In this document: one piece after another, positions 4,412 to 41,471 of the stretch
Layout: every line of letters begins with the position of its first letter
How positions within the stretch are numbered: position 1 is the stretch's first letter
DNA from: a virus
Lineage: Duplodnaviria; Heunggongvirae; Uroviricota; Caudoviricetes
Length of the DNA: 42,479 nt
IMG/VR virus record: IMGVR_UViG_2939127364_000002
Direction: 5' to 3' (one strand)
Position numbers and translations under genes: made by a program
Notes under the pieces: model-generated
Told to the model about the DNA's origin: nothing
The model's database searches: none
Seen by the model: the letters and a program-made list of their open reading frames with translations, nothing else

Positions 4412-4774
4412 TTACCTGGCTGTCAGTTGTTTTGATTTCCGGTATCCTGCCGCGTAAATGGCTACGTTTGGAAGACATACACCAGTTTCTGGTTGCTTAT
4501 GTCCAAACTCATTCGCGTACACAATGGCTGCTCTCTCCAGATTGCGTCTGTATTCTTTCTGTTGCCAGATCACGTCCTGTGCCATGAACTTAATTGGCTT
4601 AGCGTCTTCTATGCGCTCAGGCGTTTCGTGAGTACCTTTAGCCTGAATCTGCGCTCTGCTTAGAGTAGGGCGGTGTAATACTTCTGAGCTTGCCGTAATC
4701 TCATTCTGGAGCGCTGCACGACGCTCACGACGACGACCTGATGCTGAGCCATTGAAAGCTGTTCTGCGTGTCAT
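4412..4774 (-). CDS. N: N-like transcription antiterminator
   Basis: Arginine-rich N-terminus ...GRRRERRAALQ... resembles the lambda N arginine-rich motif; first gene left of the oL region; AGGAGG 7 nt upstream of ATG. Confidence 0.65.
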   Translation of the reverse strand: MTRRTAFNGSASGRRRERRAALQNEITASSEVLHRPTLSRAQIQAKGTHETPERIEDAKPIKFMAQDVIWQQKEYRRNLERAAIVYANEFGHKQPETGVCLPNVAIYAAGYRKSKQLTAR

Positions 4775-5217: not shown

Positions 5218-5838
5218 TTAATGCTGGGGAGTGATTTTTTTGTTGTCTGTTGGCTGGGTATTTTGTGGCGGCGCTTGCAAAGTGGAAGGCTGTTGCAAAG
5301 GTGCGTGGTCTGACTTTAAAGCTGATACCAGCCCGGGAATCGCAACTATTACAGCGATAATGACACTAAAAATGGCTAATCGTATAGAAATACCCGACTG
5401 AACACCACTAATTGCGGTATTAACCCCTGTTATTTGTCCTTGAATTCCTTCGAATCTCCCATTAATTGCTTTTATATCGCCAGCAGCGCTATCCATCTTT
5501 CCATCGATCTTGGACGATAGAGAGTTTATGGCTGCATTAAGTGATGCAAATTGGACATTAACGCTTTCACGAGATAGAGCCATGTCAGCCCTAATGGAAG
5601 AAGCAATAGACTCCATCTCTGCTTTATTAGCAGCTAAGCGAGCATCAAGTTCCTCTCTGCTGATCGTTCCCACTTCTTCCTCCGTTTGTGGCGGTTTTAT
5701 GTAATTATTTTGCACCTTGGTGGGAGAATTATCAAATTCAGCCTCAAAATAGGAACCGCCAACAACCTTCAACCTCCGGCTTTCAGATATGTTGGTGTCT
5801 TGCTTTCCATGATTATTTAAATTGCTGTCGTCACTCAT
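5218..5838 (-). CDS. Membrane-anchored coiled-coil protein of unknown function (206 aa), distal gene of the cI operon
   Basis: Polar N-terminus, heptad-like central region, single hydrophobic segment IRLAIFSVIIAVIVAIPGLVSAL near the C-terminus, Pro/Gln-rich tail; ATGA overlap with the upstream gene. Confidence 0.6.
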   Translation of the reverse strand: MSDDSNLNNHGKQDTNISESRRLKVVGGSYFEAEFDNSPTKVQNNYIKPPQTEEEVGTISREELDARLAANKAEMESIASSIRADMALSRESVNVQFASLNAAINSLSSKIDGKMDSAAGDIKAINGRFEGIQGQITGVNTAISGVQSGISIRLAIFSVIIAVIVAIPGLVSALKSDHAPLQQPSTLQAPPQNTQPTDNKKITPQH

Positions 5839-6269
5839 AATAGCTCTACGGTGAAAAATGATTCATTTTTATGAAGTTCATTTTTAGGGTCTTCATTATC
5901 CTGCAATATCCCTATAACACTATACAGCCCTTTAGCTGGGACCCTAATTTCTTTCAATGTTACTATTACCTGTCCGCCAACCCCTGTTTCAAAATGGCTA
6001 TCTTTCGTATCGATGAAAAGTGAAACTGATTCCGAAGAGCCGTCAGGGAATTGAATTTCCTCACCTTTTTTTATAATTAGGTGCGCGGGGATTACCATAA
6101 TACCCAAATTATATCTTGAATTTGGTTTCAACCCGATCATACCAACCCTGAAATCAATTGATAGCCGCGCAGGAAATTCATTGCATGTAAAATTAAGCGT
6201 CGGTTGGTTGGGTTCTTCGCTGCTATCAAATGGGGTTATAAAAGATATTCTTTCTAAATTAAGTGCCAT
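5835..6269 (-). CDS. Hypothetical soluble protein (about 144 aa) between cI and the membrane protein
   Basis: Start placed at ATG 6269 (MALNLERISF...) with AGGAG 5 nt upstream; track start 6323 has no good RBS; no family recognised. Confidence 0.55.
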   Translation of the reverse strand: MALNLERISFITPFDSSEEPNQPTLNFTCNEFPARLSIDFRVGMIGLKPNSRYNLGIMVIPAHLIIKKGEEIQFPDGSSESVSLFIDTKDSHFETGVGGQVIVTLKEIRVPAKGLYSVIGILQDNEDPKNELHKNESFFTVELL

Positions 6270-6370
6270 AAATTCTCCTGCATCGCTGTATGCTCTACGA
6301 GCATCTCGGCGACTTATCATCACCCAAACGTCTCTTCAGGCCACTGGCTACCAGCTATGTGACGATGAAG

Positions 6371-7075
6371 TCACGAATTTTTCAGCCACTCCCTTGCCTC
6401 GATGTCATCCAGATGGCGAGATTGCTTCAGAATACCAGCCACATACTCCACCTTTGCTACTTGATGATAAGGCAACGTTATAGGCCTGTGGTCCTGGTTA
6501 ATGCTTGTAAATTGGTATTCTCCATCTCTGTCATAGCCAAGAACCTTAATCATGTTGTGTCCTTCAACGGTTCTGACAAACACCTCATCACCCGGGAATA
6601 CTTTGGTGTTAGGCTCAATGAGTACATATTCTCCTGATTTTATTCTGGGCCACATGCTGTCTCCTTTCACACGAAGACCAAAGGCATCTGGATCATCGCT
6701 ATAAATTTTGAGCCACCCATCGCGCTCTTCGGTCATCTCGATGGCACCATCAACACCAAGAATTGCCTCACCAACCACGCGCACTAACCCTTTTCTTACC
6801 TGACCGACAAAAGTTAAAGAATCTGAGCATGATGCAATTGGTGTTACATCATGCACCAAATCAAGCCACCCATTAGGTAACCCAAGTGCGGCTTCAAATT
6901 TTCTTGCTAGTTTATCCCCTATGTTTCGAGTGCTTTTTTCACCGGAGACTTGCGTGAGTTGAGAAGGGCTAACCCCAAGCTTATCGGCAAAGCTTGCATT
7001 AGTGTTACCCGCGATTTTTTTATGCTCATCTAGCAAAAACGCTAGATTTGATTTGCGAATATCTTTGTTTTCCAT
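6371..7075 (-). CDS. cI: CI-type prophage repressor (HTH plus S24 LexA-like autopeptidase domain)
   Basis: N-terminal HTH ...SFADKLGVSPSQLTQV...; C-terminal ...GDSMWP... serine-lysine dyad signature; divergent from cro across the operator region. Confidence 0.9.
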   Translation of the reverse strand: MENKDIRKSNLAFLLDEHKKIAGNTNASFADKLGVSPSQLTQVSGEKSTRNIGDKLARKFEAALGLPNGWLDLVHDVTPIASCSDSLTFVGQVRKGLVRVVGEAILGVDGAIEMTEERDGWLKIYSDDPDAFGLRVKGDSMWPRIKSGEYVLIEPNTKVFPGDEVFVRTVEGHNMIKVLGYDRDGEYQFTSINQDHRPITLPYHQVAKVEYVAGILKQSRHLDDIEAREWLKNS

Positions 7076-8098: not shown

Positions 8099-8926
8099 AT
8101 GGGGTATGTCTCTATACACCGCCAGTTTATGGACAGCAGGCTCTATAAGGACTCTCAGGCAGTACATCTTTGGCTTCACTTAATCCTCAAGGCTAATCAC
8201 GAATCTACTGTCGTCAATACGGATATCGGTCCGATAACTGTTGATCGCGGTCAGATGATAACTGGACGCCCGTCGCTGGTCAGAGAAACATTCATCCCCG
8301 ACAACAAAGTTCGGAGCTTATTACGGACTTTTGAGTCGAAAGGTATGCTTAATATTTGCTCGATGGGGAAGAAATTTAGCCTGTTTACAATCGTTAAATA
8401 TGACGATTTTCAGGCAAAAAATTGTCCAACGGTTGTCCAACGGTTGTCCAACGCAAACACCAGTAATGGCGCGGCTCTCAGCGGAGATTGTCCAACGGTT
8501 GTCCAACGGTTGTCCATAAACAATAATATAAATAATATCTCTAATACTGACGTATTAGAGAGTGCCACAGCAGACAAAAAGTCTGACAAGAAAAAACCTT
8601 CCGTTAGCTGTCAGGATGTTGTCGATGCTTACCACGAAATCCTTCCTGAAGCGCCAAGAATCCGCGCACTGAATGACAAGCGTAAAAACCAGATCCGAAC
8701 GTTCTGGCGCAAAGCCGGAGTGATAACCCGCCAGCTTGACGGGCATGGGTTCACGATGCAGGACTGGAGAAATTATTTGAGCTACGTTGGCGAAAATTGC
8801 CGATGGATGTTCGAAGAGCGCCCAAACCATCAACGCGGAACCGTCTGGCACAAAAAGGGATTTGATTTCCTGCTTAACGATAATACCTACCTGAAAGTTC
8901 GTGAGGGTGAACACGATGACCGATAA
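8099..8926 (+). CDS. Replication initiator, O-like
   Basis: Start placed at ATG 8099 (MGYVSIHRQF...) with AGGAGG RBS instead of track start 8036; ori-like iterons lie inside the gene; followed by the helicase gene. Confidence 0.7.
   Translation: MGYVSIHRQFMDSRLYKDSQAVHLWLHLILKANHESTVVNTDIGPITVDRGQMITGRPSLVRETFIPDNKVRSLLRTFESKGMLNICSMGKKFSLFTIVKYDDFQAKNCPTVVQRLSNANTSNGAALSGDCPTVVQRLSINNNINNISNTDVLESATADKKSDKKKPSVSCQDVVDAYHEILPEAPRIRALNDKRKNQIRTFWRKAGVITRQLDGHGFTMQDWRNYLSYVGENCRWMFEERPNHQRGTVWHKKGFDFLLNDNTYLKVREGEHDDR
8422..8517. repeat. Replication origin iterons: two clusters of three tandem 11-bp repeats (TTGTCCAACGG)
   Basis: Copies at 8422..8454 and 8488..8517 (last copy partial), then AT-rich stretch 8515..8560; all inside the O-like gene. 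Confidence 0.7.
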
Positions 8927-10352
8927 TTTTTATGCGCCGCCCCATAGCATCGAGGCAGAGCAGGCGGTGATTGGTGGATTGCTTCTGGATGATGACAGCA
9001 GTGAGCGCGTCCAGAAAGTTCTGGCGATGCTGAAGCCCGATTCATTTTACAGCCGACCACACAAAATCCTTTTCGAAGAAATAACCAGAATGCACCGTGA
9101 GCAAAAGCCAGTAGATGGCCTGACGCTTTTCGATGAACTGGAGCGTAAATCGTTAACGGTGTCTGTTGGCGGTTTTGCTTATATCGCTGAGATCGCAAAG
9201 AACACGCCAAGCGCAGCAAACATCGTTGCCTATGCAATGCAGGTTCGTGAAACCGCAATGGAACGCTACGCCATCAACCGCATGACTGAAGCGACGGAAT
9301 TGCTCTATTCCCGCAACGGAATGACTGCAACGCAGAAGTACGAAGCTATTCAGTCGATTTTCACGCAACTGACAGACCATGCAAAAACCGGATCGCGTCG
9401 CGGCCTTCGCTCATTTGGTGAGGTCATGGAAGACTGGGTTAGCGACCTTGAGAAGCGATTTGACCCGTCAGGCGAACAACGAGGAATGAGCACAGGGATC
9501 CCATCGCTGGACAGGATGCTGTCACCGAAAGGCCTGGTGAAAGGCTCTCTGTTTGTCATTGGCGCTCGCCCTAAGATGGGGAAAACGACGCTATACAGCC
9601 AGATGGCAATCAACTGCGCAGTGCATGAGAAAAAGCCCGCTCTGATGTTCAGCCTTGAAATGCCCGGTGACCAGATACTGGAAAAACTGGTAGGACAGAA
9701 GTCAGGTGTTAACCCGAATATTTTTTACCTTCCGGCGACAAATGACGCTGATGACGGCTATCAGGGTGATTACGATGGTGACTTCAACAGGGCGATCGAA
9801 ACAGCCAATCGCTTGAGTGAAATCGACCTGCTTTACATCGACGACACGCCGGGATTATCTCTGGCTCAAATCGTCAGCGAAAGCCGTCGAATCAAGCGAG
9901 AAAAAGGATGTGTTGGCATGATTCTGGTCGATTACCTGACACTAATGACCGCTGAGAAGGCCGATCGCAACGACCTTGCTTACGGCATGATCACCAAAGG
10001 ACTGAAGAACCTTGCCAAAGAGCTTGATTGCGTTGTTGTGCTTCTGACACAGCTTAACCGCGCACTGGAAAGCCGAACCAATAAACGCCCATTACCAAGT
10101 GACTCACGAGATACAGGGCAGATTGAACAGGATTGCGATTATTGGGTGGGGATCCATCGTGAAGGCGCTTTTGATGACAGTGTTCCACCTGGTGAAACCG
10201 AACTAATCCTTCGTCTCAATCGTCATGGCAATACCGGCACGGTGTATTGCATTCAGGCAAATGGCGCTATTTATGACACAGACCAACAGTCTGCTGAAAT
10301 GCGCCGACGTGAACGCGAGGAACCGCAGTCCAAGAAGAAAGGAGGATTCTGA
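8916..10352 (+). CDS. DnaB-type replicative DNA helicase
   Basis: N-terminus ...FYAPPHSIEAEQAVIGGLLLD...; Walker A GARPKMGKTT; start at ATG 8916 (GAGGGTG RBS) overlapping the O-like gene end. Confidence 0.9.
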   Translation: MTDNFYAPPHSIEAEQAVIGGLLLDDDSSERVQKVLAMLKPDSFYSRPHKILFEEITRMHREQKPVDGLTLFDELERKSLTVSVGGFAYIAEIAKNTPSAANIVAYAMQVRETAMERYAINRMTEATELLYSRNGMTATQKYEAIQSIFTQLTDHAKTGSRRGLRSFGEVMEDWVSDLEKRFDPSGEQRGMSTGIPSLDRMLSPKGLVKGSLFVIGARPKMGKTTLYSQMAINCAVHEKKPALMFSLEMPGDQILEKLVGQKSGVNPNIFYLPATNDADDGYQGDYDGDFNRAIETANRLSEIDLLYIDDTPGLSLAQIVSESRRIKREKGCVGMILVDYLTLMTAEKADRNDLAYGMITKGLKNLAKELDCVVVLLTQLNRALESRTNKRPLPSDSRDTGQIEQDCDYWVGIHREGAFDDSVPPGETELILRLNRHGNTGTVYCIQANGAIYDTDQQSAEMRRREREEPQSKKKGGF

Positions 10353-10455
10353 TGACCATCTACATCACTGAGCTGATAACAGGGTTATCGTTACTAATGG
10401 TTCTTACTGTATATATTATTAAGTATATTCTTTATGCGAATAAAAAAACTAATTG
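10351..10455 (+). CDS. Possible 34-aa hydrophobic peptide
   Basis: MTIYITELITGLSLLMVLTVYIIKYILYANKKTN; AAAGGAGGA 6 nt upstream; ATG overlaps the helicase stop (TGATGA); speculative. Confidence 0.3.
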
Positions 10456-11045
10456 ATCACGATGAGCTTCTGTCAACATTATCATATGACTCAGAAACAG
10501 GAATATTTAAATGGCTAAAAACAAATTCAGTAGTAAGAGTAAAAGGTAGTATTGCTGGAGGTGTTAGTGGTGGTTATATATGCATTAGCATAAATAATGT
10601 TTTGTATTATGCGCATAGACTTGCTTGGTTCTATGTATACAAAAAATGGCCTCCTAAGTTTATTGATCATGTAAATGGGAACAGACTTGACAATAGGATT
10701 TCAAATCTAAGACTGGCAACAGAAGAGCAGAATGCAAGAAACATTGTAGGGAATAGATTAAACACATCCGGTGCAATTGGAGTGTCTTGGTATAAGCCAA
10801 CTGGCAGGTGGAAGTCTTATGTTGGTTATAAAAATAAGACAATATCGTTAGGGTATTTCGACAGCAAAGAAGATGCAGCATTCATAGCAGCACTAGCAAG
10901 AAAGAAACTATATGGAACTTATGCGAGTAAAGCACTTAATTGCGAGCATGAGCTTTTATCTCAATTTAATAATGATGAGGATAAACTTGCGGAATATCTT
11001 AAGGAAAAATCTAAAAGGACTCGAAAGCGTGTTAAAAACAGATAA
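10434..11045 (+). CDS. HNH endonuclease with AP2 DNA-binding domain (homing-endonuclease-like)
   Basis: ...YAHRLAWFYVYKKWPPKFIDHVNGNRLDNRISNLRLATEEQNARN... (HNH) and ...GVSWYKPTGRWKSYVGYKNKTISLGYF... (AP2-like); gene is visibly AT-rich. Confidence 0.75.
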   Translation: MRIKKLIDHDELLSTLSYDSETGIFKWLKTNSVVRVKGSIAGGVSGGYICISINNVLYYAHRLAWFYVYKKWPPKFIDHVNGNRLDNRISNLRLATEEQNARNIVGNRLNTSGAIGVSWYKPTGRWKSYVGYKNKTISLGYFDSKEDAAFIAALARKKLYGTYASKALNCEHELLSQFNNDEDKLAEYLKEKSKRTRKRVKNR

Positions 11046-11076
11046 AGGCCTGCTGGTAATCGCAGGCCTTTTTATT
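11046..11076 (+). terminator. Rho-independent terminator after the HNH-AP2 gene
   Basis: Stem aggcctgc/gcaggcct with 8-nt loop followed by TTTTTATTT. Confidence 0.6.
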
Positions 11077-11105
11077 TGGGGGAGAGTAATTGGAGGCTTT
11101 AAGAA

Positions 11106-11333
11106 ATGAGTTCGATGACTGAGCTTGTCTGCGCCGACTTTCAGGAGAACATTGGTCGTGCAAAGCGGTACTGGTCTGCTTCCAGACTTCCGACTGGCGA
11201 GAGACAGAAAAACGCCCCTAAGCCACGGATCTATCCGCGCGACCGCGTTCTTCGCCGGTTGGTTAAAATCGATACTGATTTTCAGTGTGACAGAATTATC
11301 CAGCAATTAGATTTGATGACTGATGATGAATGA
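11106..11333 (+). CDS. Hypothetical nin-region protein (75 aa)
   Basis: Track ORF with GGAGG-type RBS; no family recognised. Confidence 0.5.
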   Translation: MSSMTELVCADFQENIGRAKRYWSASRLPTGERQKNAPKPRIYPRDRVLRRLVKIDTDFQCDRIIQQLDLMTDDE

Positions 11334-41396: not shown

Positions 41397-41471
41397 TGGT
41401 GTCCCCTGCAGGAATCGAACCTGCAATTAGCCCTTAGGAGGGGCTCGTTATATCCATTTAACTAAGAGGAC
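41397..41471 (-). tRNA. argW: tRNA-Arg (anticodon CCU)
   Basis: 75-nt cloverleaf GTCCTCTTAGTTAAATGGATATAACGAGCCCCTCCTAAGGGCTAATTGCAGGTTCGATTCCTGCAGGGGACACCA with anticodon CCT and encoded CCA. Confidence 0.9.
41411..41426. repeat. att core copy within the argW T-arm
   Basis: Exact 16-bp match to 221..236. Confidence 0.6.

Follow-up and report, generated by a model that had tools for sequence, protein, structure and literature searches.

The Locus Between the Helicase Gene and the nin Region

In lambda-like phages, the replication module is joined to the nin region by a linker of about 70 bp, the ninA/tR2 linker. In the prophage DNA of IMG/VR record IMGVR_UViG_2939127364_000002 (42,479 nucleotides; the whole stretch is hereafter called the window), identified by sequence comparison as an HK022/mEp506/HK542-like lambdoid prophage, this linker is interrupted by a 662-bp island that encodes a nuclease with HNH and AP2 domains. 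The island, at positions 10384-11045, is probably a minimal free-standing homing endonuclease cassette. The features of the locus are as follows (ORF, open reading frame).

8901-10352, + strand: DnaB-type helicase ORF (Pfam DnaB and DnaB_C), with its stop codon TGA at 10350-10352
10338-10346, + strand: Shine-Dalgarno (SD) sequence AAAGGAGGA of the ninA head, within the final helicase codons; resident, outside the island
10352-10383, + strand: resident ninA head, 32 nt (ATG and codons 1-11, MTIYITELITG); presumed left homology arm and left half of the putative target site
10352-10456, + strand: chimeric micro-ORF of 34 codons, MTIYITELITGLSLLMVLTVYIIKYILYANKKTN (ORF listing and junction mapping)
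10384-11045, + strand: inserted island of 662 bp, made of a 50-nt T-rich leader and the nuclease ORF through its TAA (junctions mapped on HK75)
10434-11045, + strand: HNH-AP2 nuclease ORF of 203 aa, with its own ATG and a TAA at 11043-11045
11046-11078, + strand: resident terminator lambda tR2, AGGCCTGC-loop-GCAGGCCT and T-run (terminator scan, fold and identity with lambda); presumed right half of the putative target site
11046-11109, + strand: orphaned 3' part of ninA, ending in LLVIAGLFIWGRVIGGFKK and a stop codon (ORF listing and comparison with empty alleles)

The stop codon of the helicase gene and the start codon of the micro-ORF share one base (TGATG, position 10352), and GGAGG stands 6 nt before this ATG; the bases of AAAGGAGGA are likewise found in the insertion-free phage HK75. 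The micro-ORF and the nuclease ORF overlap by 23 nt, the stop of the former lying 20 nt downstream of the ATG of the latter, and the nuclease is read in the +1 frame relative to the micro-ORF, so that the two are not fused in frame. On the right side of the island, the hairpin at 11044-11071 with its T-run has a calculated fold energy of -20.7 kcal/mol (z -3.6).

The Insertion-Free Allele

A megablast search against phage genomes returned two types of relatives, those that carry the segment at 98-100% identity, namely HK022 and Stx phages such as PA28, 1717 and WGPS4/6, and those in which the flanks are contiguous and the segment is absent, including HK75, mEp235, HK629/630 and others. The sequence-only reading of this DNA had proposed a foreign insertion of the free-standing homing endonuclease type, for which an insertion-free allele should exist, and HK75 provides that allele with both junctions defined to the nucleotide. 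The empty allele reads ..ATGACCATCTACATCACTGAGCTAATAACAGG/CCTGCTGGTAATCGCAGGCCTTTTTATTTGGGGGAGAG.., the slash marking the junction, and the window reads ..ATAACAGG/GTTATCG...(662 bp)...CAGATAA/AGGCCTGCTGG.. Each junction has a copy of AGG, which allows the boundaries to shift by 3 nt. The island thus lies after ninA codon 11 and immediately 5' of the tR2 hairpin, and its right end falls exactly at the stop codon of the nuclease gene. The role of the interrupted sequence as a target is presumed.

Without the insertion, the ATG at the end of the helicase gene begins a ninA ORF of 27 codons, MTIYITELITGLLVIAGLFIWGRVNRG, which reads through the hairpin. Except for single-nucleotide polymorphisms (SNPs), the ninA head of the window is the same as in the empty-site alleles of HK75, lambda and Sf6. 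In lambda, this sequence is found between ren and ninB. Its counterpart in the Sf6 record bears three labels, gene 45 ('similar to phage 21 NinA'), 'bsq6; boundary sequence', and 'terminator; homology to phage lambda; tR2'. The ninA gene is a named, non-essential gene of the nin region (PMC8022706). Against the NinA family PHROG 5907, a profile of 27 residues, HK75 NinA matches over positions 1-26 (E 1.3e-18), and the window peptide matches over positions 1-12 only (E 8.8e-5).

By these comparisons the micro-ORF is a chimera, with an SD sequence, a start codon and codons 1-11 that come from ninA, followed by 23 codons (12-34) of island leader. It had been taken for a feature of the island itself, a view that holds for codons 12-34 and has to be corrected for the ribosome binding site (RBS), the start and the first 11 codons, which belong to resident ninA. 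The ninA gene of the window is split, and its tail lies together with the hairpin 662 bp downstream, cut off from translation initiated at the ninA start. The TGA of this orphaned tail (11107-11109) overlaps the ATG of the next gene at 11106 (ATGA, 11106-11109), a remnant of the ancestral coupling between ninA and the following nin gene. A 65-codon + strand ORF at 10912-11109, out of the nuclease frame, crosses tR2 in the old ninA frame as far as the TGA overlapping the DUF7301 gene start (11106), and most likely exists by accident, as a by-product of the orphaned ninA tail.

The segment had also been described as closed by its own terminator, a claim that does not survive the comparison. The hairpin is resident tR2, and the window agrees with the island-free loci of lambda, Sf6 and HK75 at every base from hairpin to G-run (AGGCCTGCTGGTAATCGCAGGCCTTTTTATTTGGGGGAGAG). 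The insertion has left the hairpin intact and slightly lengthened by the terminal A's of the island, with a fold energy of -20.7 versus -16.8 kcal/mol in the empty allele.

Phages of the HK97/HK544 type share the 32-nt ninA head (locus L171, HK544, positions 1501-1599) and carry, from exactly the insertion point of the island after ..ACAGG, a different hairpin (GGGGCUA..UAGCCCC, -14.8 kcal/mol). The HK544-type ninA ORF still crosses this replacement hairpin (..AIYTVALFYWIKNEGNPDGHR and stop). The combination of a conserved head, an ORF that spans the terminator and a replaceable hairpin hints at a relay between translation and termination rather than at a conserved peptide.

Composition and Occurrence of the Island

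The AT-rich character noticed in the sequence-only reading is confirmed by local composition. With a GC content of 0.337, the island is the lowest of all 662-nt segments of the 42.5-kb window (mean 0.504, sd 0.052), and GC at third codon positions is 0.25 in the nuclease gene versus 0.43-0.57 in neighboring genes. The composition of the island is foreign, not native.

The intact 70-bp linker is present in 385 phage records, counted at a coverage of at least 80% of the site, and in 1885 of 5426 complete E. coli genomes (about 35%), versus 19 phage records and 126 E. coli genomes for the island. The site is therefore occupied in about 5% of cases, and some 95% of related phages are free of the insertion, including close relatives that share the helicase and nin genes; the gene is far from universal at this position. 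Such a presence/absence polymorphism at a single precise site is characteristic of free-standing homing endonuclease genes.

The E. coli CP53 chromosome matches the island region at 100% identity, and its PGAP label for the gene is 'HNH endonuclease'; the nuclease gene is 99.8% identical to the annotated HK022 gene. The search for a donor lineage found none, with GTDB species representatives yielding a single E. coli contig. The nearest other phage homologs are less than 60% identical, and outside the cluster of 98-100% identical copies the nearest protein is about 50% identical or less, with the exception of one recombinant (P0004/L008, 62% identity).

The HNH-AP2 Protein

The Pfam profile HNH_3 (PF13392) matches residues 58-102 of the nuclease over its full length (E 8.2e-16, 57.8 bits against a cut-off of 24.8), and PHROG 99 matches the protein with an E-value of 7e-72. 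For AP2 (PF00847), the single sequence scores below the gathering cut-off of 33.3 bits (E 1.6e-6, 28.7 bits). Many homologs carry a precomputed PF00847 assignment, and a family profile run against the PDB finds the AP2 domains of WRI1 (3.5e-10), TEM1 (3.5e-6) and AtERF1 (0.04), as well as I-HmuI (E 4.2e-7). The AlphaFold2 (AF2) model of the nuclease has a mean confidence (pLDDT) of 89.5. Foldseek matches the AP2 domains of TEM1 (rmsd 1.1-1.2 Å, 48 columns) and AtERF1 (rmsd 1.3 Å, 51 columns, TM 0.69), and aligns the protein with I-HmuI (1u3e_M) at a probability of 1.00 over 106 columns (rmsd 3.9 Å, E 0.025). The profile and fold matches to solved AP2 domains make the AP2 assignment sound despite the sub-threshold Pfam score, and both domains named in the sequence-only reading are thus supported.

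The protein is made up of an N-terminal beta domain, the HNH_3 domain with the catalytic residues D78-H79, N87/N91 and N103, an AP2 domain at about residues 112-163, and a basic helical tail (165-203) that, according to the alignment and the AF2 model, is lineage-specific and absent from most relatives. A family alignment of 60 sequences has H61, R62, D78, H79, N87, N91 and N103 as invariant residues, and the window protein retains every one of them. Among the island alleles, 10 synonymous and 9 nonsynonymous changes are found in the nuclease gene, and the resulting dN/dS of about 0.25 suggests that the nuclease is, or recently was, under constraint.

The family is large, with 1607 homologs at E <= 1e-5, mostly of 160-175 aa and with HNH_3 and AP2 assignments. 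It occurs in 1255 phage records, often in several copies per genome, and many members are labeled homing endonuclease, including the T5-like hegE. HNH-AP2 proteins form a described class of homing endonucleases according to PMC10448857 (citing Magnani et al., 2004), and they are also mentioned in bioRxiv 10.64898/2026.02.23.707548. Rfam gives no intron match anywhere in the window and no RNA family in the region, and the nuclease is encoded by an ORF of its own, with ATG and TAA, outside any intron or intein. Literature searches found no paper on the target or the activity of the island nuclease. The defense-system search returned a weak PADLOC 'HEase' match alone (E 7.6e-4), and no NCBIfam model matches.

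Other occupations are conceivable for a protein of this build, as HNH proteins assist terminases in HK97-like phages. AP2 domains, for their part, act as repressors in other phage proteins, the CasPRs (bioRxiv 10.64898/2026.02.23.707548). The nuclease might accordingly have been domesticated as a DNA-binding regulator of the AP2 repressor type or as a packaging-type HNH protein similar to the terminase helper gp74 of HK97. We consider this very improbable, as the gene is missing from about 95% of otherwise similar phages, close relatives among them, lies far from the packaging genes and has a foreign composition. In addition, copies that are split or broken by insertion sequences (ISs) persist in phage and prophage DNA, and CasPRs combine CapR with AP2 domains and have no HNH domain. 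A gp74-type packaging function in particular is rejected on account of the location of the gene and its pattern of presence and absence.

Movement Among Lambdoid Phages

To follow the island across genomes, 31 island loci were gathered from IMG/VR, and more than 120 empty loci were added by exact-pattern scans. The left junction is readable in 27 occupied loci, or 28 with the E. coli CP53 copy. The junctions are the same across the 27, and the island measures 662 bp in all but one of them. It is preceded by seven unrelated upstream contexts, including the DnaB-type helicase gene (window and HK022), ren and a Toprim primase-helicase gene, and followed by at least six different downstream genes, for a total of 15 upstream/downstream combinations. 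There are 10 island alleles, which differ at no more than 15 positions, and several of them are identical over all 662 nt in two to four different contexts each.

A marker in the flank travels with the island. Codon 10 of ninA, 5 nt outside the left junction, is GCA rather than ACA in 26 of 28 occupied loci, versus 7 of 125 sampled empty loci (Fisher p 9e-21, for loci that are phylogenetically non-independent), and the linkage persists across all seven upstream contexts. The two exceptions with ACA are the window and the matching E. coli CP53 copy, which are probably one prophage. To the right of the G-run, the comparison of occupied and empty loci showed no comparable linkage. What moves is thus the island together with some of the ninA head (between a few nt and about 30) and as much as about 40 nt of tR2. 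Horizontal spread with co-conversion of a flank is found here, as in free-standing homing endonuclease genes. Judging from the alleles, the pattern is that left by break-stimulated short-tract gene conversion and is consistent with, though no proof of, homing that depends on the nuclease.

Homing would proceed as follows. When the carrier grows lytically alongside a lambdoid phage or prophage whose linker is intact, the nuclease would nick or cut that linker, the HNH domain providing the cut and the AP2 and N-terminal beta domains binding DNA, possibly the GC-rich arms of the hairpin or the G-run. Repair from the carrier genome through the 32-nt left arm and the right arm of about 40 nt would then copy the cassette into the recipient. 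Because the insertion splits the site, the carrier would be immune.

A number of observations weigh against this model. The left arm, with 32 nt, is short for efficient repair, and the literature searches turned up no cleavage or homing experiment for the island nuclease. All copies being at least 98% identical, the leader and the micro-ORF offer no informative variation. Free-standing homing endonucleases often cut away from their insertion point, so that the linker is a putative target only. The junction of the island after ..ACAGG coincides with a natural boundary between alleles, that of HK97/HK544. The linker has itself been proposed to be a recombination 'boundary sequence' (Clark et al., 2001, as cited in PMC3233612 and PMC2327257). 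If recombination, whether ordinary or Red-mediated, took place within the short arms, the flanking modules could be shuffled around an insert that stays passive, and crossovers of this kind, in a boundary sequence prone to recombination, could leave the same pattern.

Taken to its conclusion, this line of argument makes the island a passive passenger, which entered once by an illegitimate or microhomology-mediated event and was subsequently spread by the shuffling of modules at ninA/tR2, its nuclease being inactive or irrelevant. Beyond the known nature of the boundary ('bsq6') and its coincidence with the HK97/HK544 junction, such a history would fit the low occupancy of about 5% and the fact that intact sites have the same spread of contexts on both sides, upstream and downstream. 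It has more difficulty with arms that have been cut to 32 and about 40 nt around identical 662-nt alleles in up to four contexts. Moreover, a SNP 5 nt from the junction that stays linked across seven contexts is better explained by break-stimulated short-tract conversion than by random crossovers, and intact catalytic residues together with a dN/dS of about 0.25 argue for a working protein. Passive carriage is therefore unlikely in our assessment, and homing by the island nuclease remains the favored explanation.

Transcription, the Micro-ORF and Translation of the Nuclease

A scan against the sigma-70 promoter consensus detected no promoter-like site on the + strand of the island, and its sole terminator is tR2. 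The island is thus expected to be transcribed with the early rightward operon and to be silent in a repressed lysogen. In the homing model, the cassette would be transcribed within that operon and the transcript terminated by resident tR2 directly after the TAA. A promoter within the island was considered and rejected, as the three promoter-like sites found are all on the minus strand and at chance level.

The expected silence in lysogens bears on the proposal that the nuclease is kept as a weapon of competition or exclusion, damaging lambdoid rivals that have an intact linker, with gene conversion as a by-product. The mechanism would be the same as that of homing, and sequence alone cannot tell the two apart. 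The proposal is in keeping with the presence of the target in about 35% of E. coli genomes, with purifying selection on the nuclease gene and with the weak PADLOC match mentioned above. In contrast, an island devoid of a promoter-like site would provide no protection to the lysogen, and no defense-system partner genes are found nearby. On balance, an exclusion role seems improbable, and we retain homing.

The 34-codon hydrophobic ORF with a strong RBS, which the sequence-only reading had placed across the helicase stop and the nuclease start, is present at 10352-10456 and annotated as HK022_56 in AF069308. It is intact in all 27 occupied loci in which the resident ninA head adjoins the island; in the IS-interrupted copies, the head is absent beside the island. 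All seven unrelated upstream genes end right before the ninA ATG and carry a GGAG-type motif 6-8 nt upstream of it, a comparison that provides good evidence for translation of the ninA head (loci L003, L008, L012-L041 and L050-L129 were compared with window positions 10338-10354). In lambda, ninA overlaps ren at its start codon and ninB at its stop codon, in a chain of overlapping stop and start codons that spans tR2; this arrangement makes ninA look like a translational bridge across the terminator.

Like NinA, the micro-ORF product is hydrophobic and resembles a transmembrane segment, with a Kyte-Doolittle maximum over 15 residues of 2.34 versus 2.31 for NinA. The probability that the leader frame is open by chance is about 0.22-0.28. 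A frame both open and equally hydrophobic is expected with a probability of about 3e-4 relative to the island composition (about 1e-3 given an open frame), but of only about 0.02 relative to shuffles of the leader's own composition of 53% T. The hydrophobicity of the micro-ORF as a sign of selection, with the island supplying a surrogate NinA tail, is thus suggestive, a lead rather than a finding. A tblastn search with the 34-aa peptide hit island-bearing phages only and revealed no other source of the leader or the tail. The leader SNPs, at 10449 and 10450 only and in few loci, are uninformative on whether the micro-ORF is coding.

How the nuclease itself is translated is less straightforward. 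As the sequence-only reading had stated, its start lacks an SD sequence of its own, positions -15 to -1 (TTAAGTATATTCTTT) having no SD or purine-rich motif. The junction between helicase gene and micro-ORF (TGATG) has the classic geometry of translational coupling. That between micro-ORF and nuclease gene is atypical, with the stop 20 nt past the nuclease ATG, no SD sequence and no sequestering structure. RNA structure masking the nuclease start was considered and dismissed, as the leader folds no better than its shuffles (z +0.85 and +0.62). Coupling to the micro-ORF is nevertheless plausible, because the island has neither a match to the promoter consensus nor an SD sequence. The nuclease is probably made by reinitiation of post-termination ribosomes or by SD-independent initiation on the leader, which is 53% U. 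It would probably rely on ribosomes loaded at the strong resident ninA start that read the 23 leader codons, and under either route its output would be low. A run of seven A's at 10442-10448 lies within the 23-nt overlap of micro-ORF and nuclease gene, and one allele has eight (10449 C>A). Slippage at this run would fuse the hydrophobic peptide to the nuclease in the +1 frame, a purely hypothetical event.

A more elaborate scenario is that the island exploits a conserved translational relay and carries a surrogate half of the ninA gene that it interrupts. In insertion-free phages, ribosomes would run from the last replication gene into ninA, across tR2 and into the first nin gene, and their passage through the overlapping stop and start codons could make tR2 sensitive to translation. 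In occupied phages, the T-rich leader would keep the ninA frame open and hydrophobic, such that a NinA-like micro-protein with a single helix would still be made, and terminating ribosomes would be delivered beside the SD-less start, keeping expression of a toxic nuclease low and dependent on the early operon. We regard this scenario as unlikely.

Broken and Recombinant Copies

Three independent IS insertions have been found, all in the first 120 nt or so of the island. In phage 1717, ISEc8 lies in island nt 1-8 with an 8-bp duplication, GGTTATCG (L004, 51-66 and 2490-2510). A second IS is inserted within the leader (L028, about 2700), and an IS21-like element interrupts the nuclease gene at about codon 22 (L042, about 3056). 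Each of them separates the nuclease gene from ninA translation or disrupts it, and split nuclease genes also occur in some E. coli genomes. Such copies represent the decay that is typical of homing endonuclease genes.

The recombinant mentioned above, on a Logan contig (SRR10380363; L008, 3919-4516), encodes a nuclease of 171 aa with 62% identity overall. Its leader and first 58 codons are nearly identical to those of the island, and the remainder is a GC-richer HNH-AP2 sequence of a different family member. The tR2 terminator is missing, and the 3' end of the nuclease gene overlaps rusA. This arrangement suggests domain-level exchange between homing endonuclease genes.

Other Features of the Window

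On the minus strand, positions 5218-6323 hold two genes of unassigned function, coding for proteins of 206 and 162 aa, with a GC content of about 0.39. They lie between the gene for a cI-like repressor (6371-7075) and that for an N-like antiterminator (4412-4774), which is the position of rexAB in lambda. PADLOC gives no hit for the two proteins, and Pfam no match above its threshold; the genes are candidates for prophage-expressed exclusion genes. Near the window end, a tRNA-Arg (CCT) gene at 41397-41471 on the minus strand is probably the attachment-site tRNA and marks the edge of the prophage.

Significance and Comparison With Known Systems

The island is an ordinary homing endonuclease gene, already annotated in the records of HK022 and Stx phages as well as by PGAP. 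Two elements are mildly new, its putative target, defined to the nucleotide as the linker between replication module and nin region, and the comparative evidence for its recent movement. The ninA/tR2 linker is among the most conserved short sequences of the otherwise mosaic lambdoid phages, and with the site defined, homing in temperate phages can be put to a direct test, using HK022 and lambda. The definition also bears on the old question of whether the module boundaries of lambdoid phages are maintained or exploited by nucleases.

The seg and mob genes of T-even phages are similar in that they are small AT-rich insertions between conserved genes, many of them without a promoter of their own, that are present or absent among relatives and are associated with co-conversion of flanking markers. 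They differ from the island in coding for GIY-YIG or HNH proteins without AP2, in belonging to lytic phages and in having had their homing demonstrated experimentally. The same gene is carried by HK022 (HK022_57 / NP_597900, 'putative endonuclease') and by the Stx phages PA28 and 1717, in copies of the island that are 99-100% identical and occupy the same site; the PA28 gene (KP682381) is labeled 'homing endonuclease', and the RefSeq/PGAP label is 'HNH endonuclease'. The window differs from these copies by a few SNPs, by ACA instead of GCA at ninA codon 10 and by a different downstream gene (DUF7301).

With I-HmuI of the Bacillus phage SPO1 (PDB 1u3e), the island protein shares a beta-sheet DNA-binding domain and a beta-beta-alpha-metal HNH core. 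I-HmuI is, in contrast, encoded by a group I intron, ends in a helix-turn-helix rather than an AP2 domain and is a nicking enzyme, and identity between the two proteins is about 20%. The HNH-AP2 homing endonucleases called 'IPA-HNH' in ICP1-like phages are, according to PMC10448857, products of free-standing phage genes with an N-terminal HNH and a C-terminal AP2 domain, as in the island, and are found at boundaries of genetic exchange. IPA-HNH proteins are too divergent for the HNH profile, unlike the island protein with its canonical Pfam HNH_3 domain and its additional basic tail (165-203), and their genes lie beside an essential gene, as opposed to a terminator/micro-ORF linker in a temperate lambdoid phage.

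Finally, the ninA/tR2 boundary sequence of lambda (bsq6 of Sf6; PHROG 5907) is the resident element of the locus, to which the RBS, the start codon, codons 1-11 and the terminator of the window belong. This assignment carries a warning for annotation, namely that an RBS, a micro-ORF start and a terminator found beside an insert can all belong to the host element that it interrupts.

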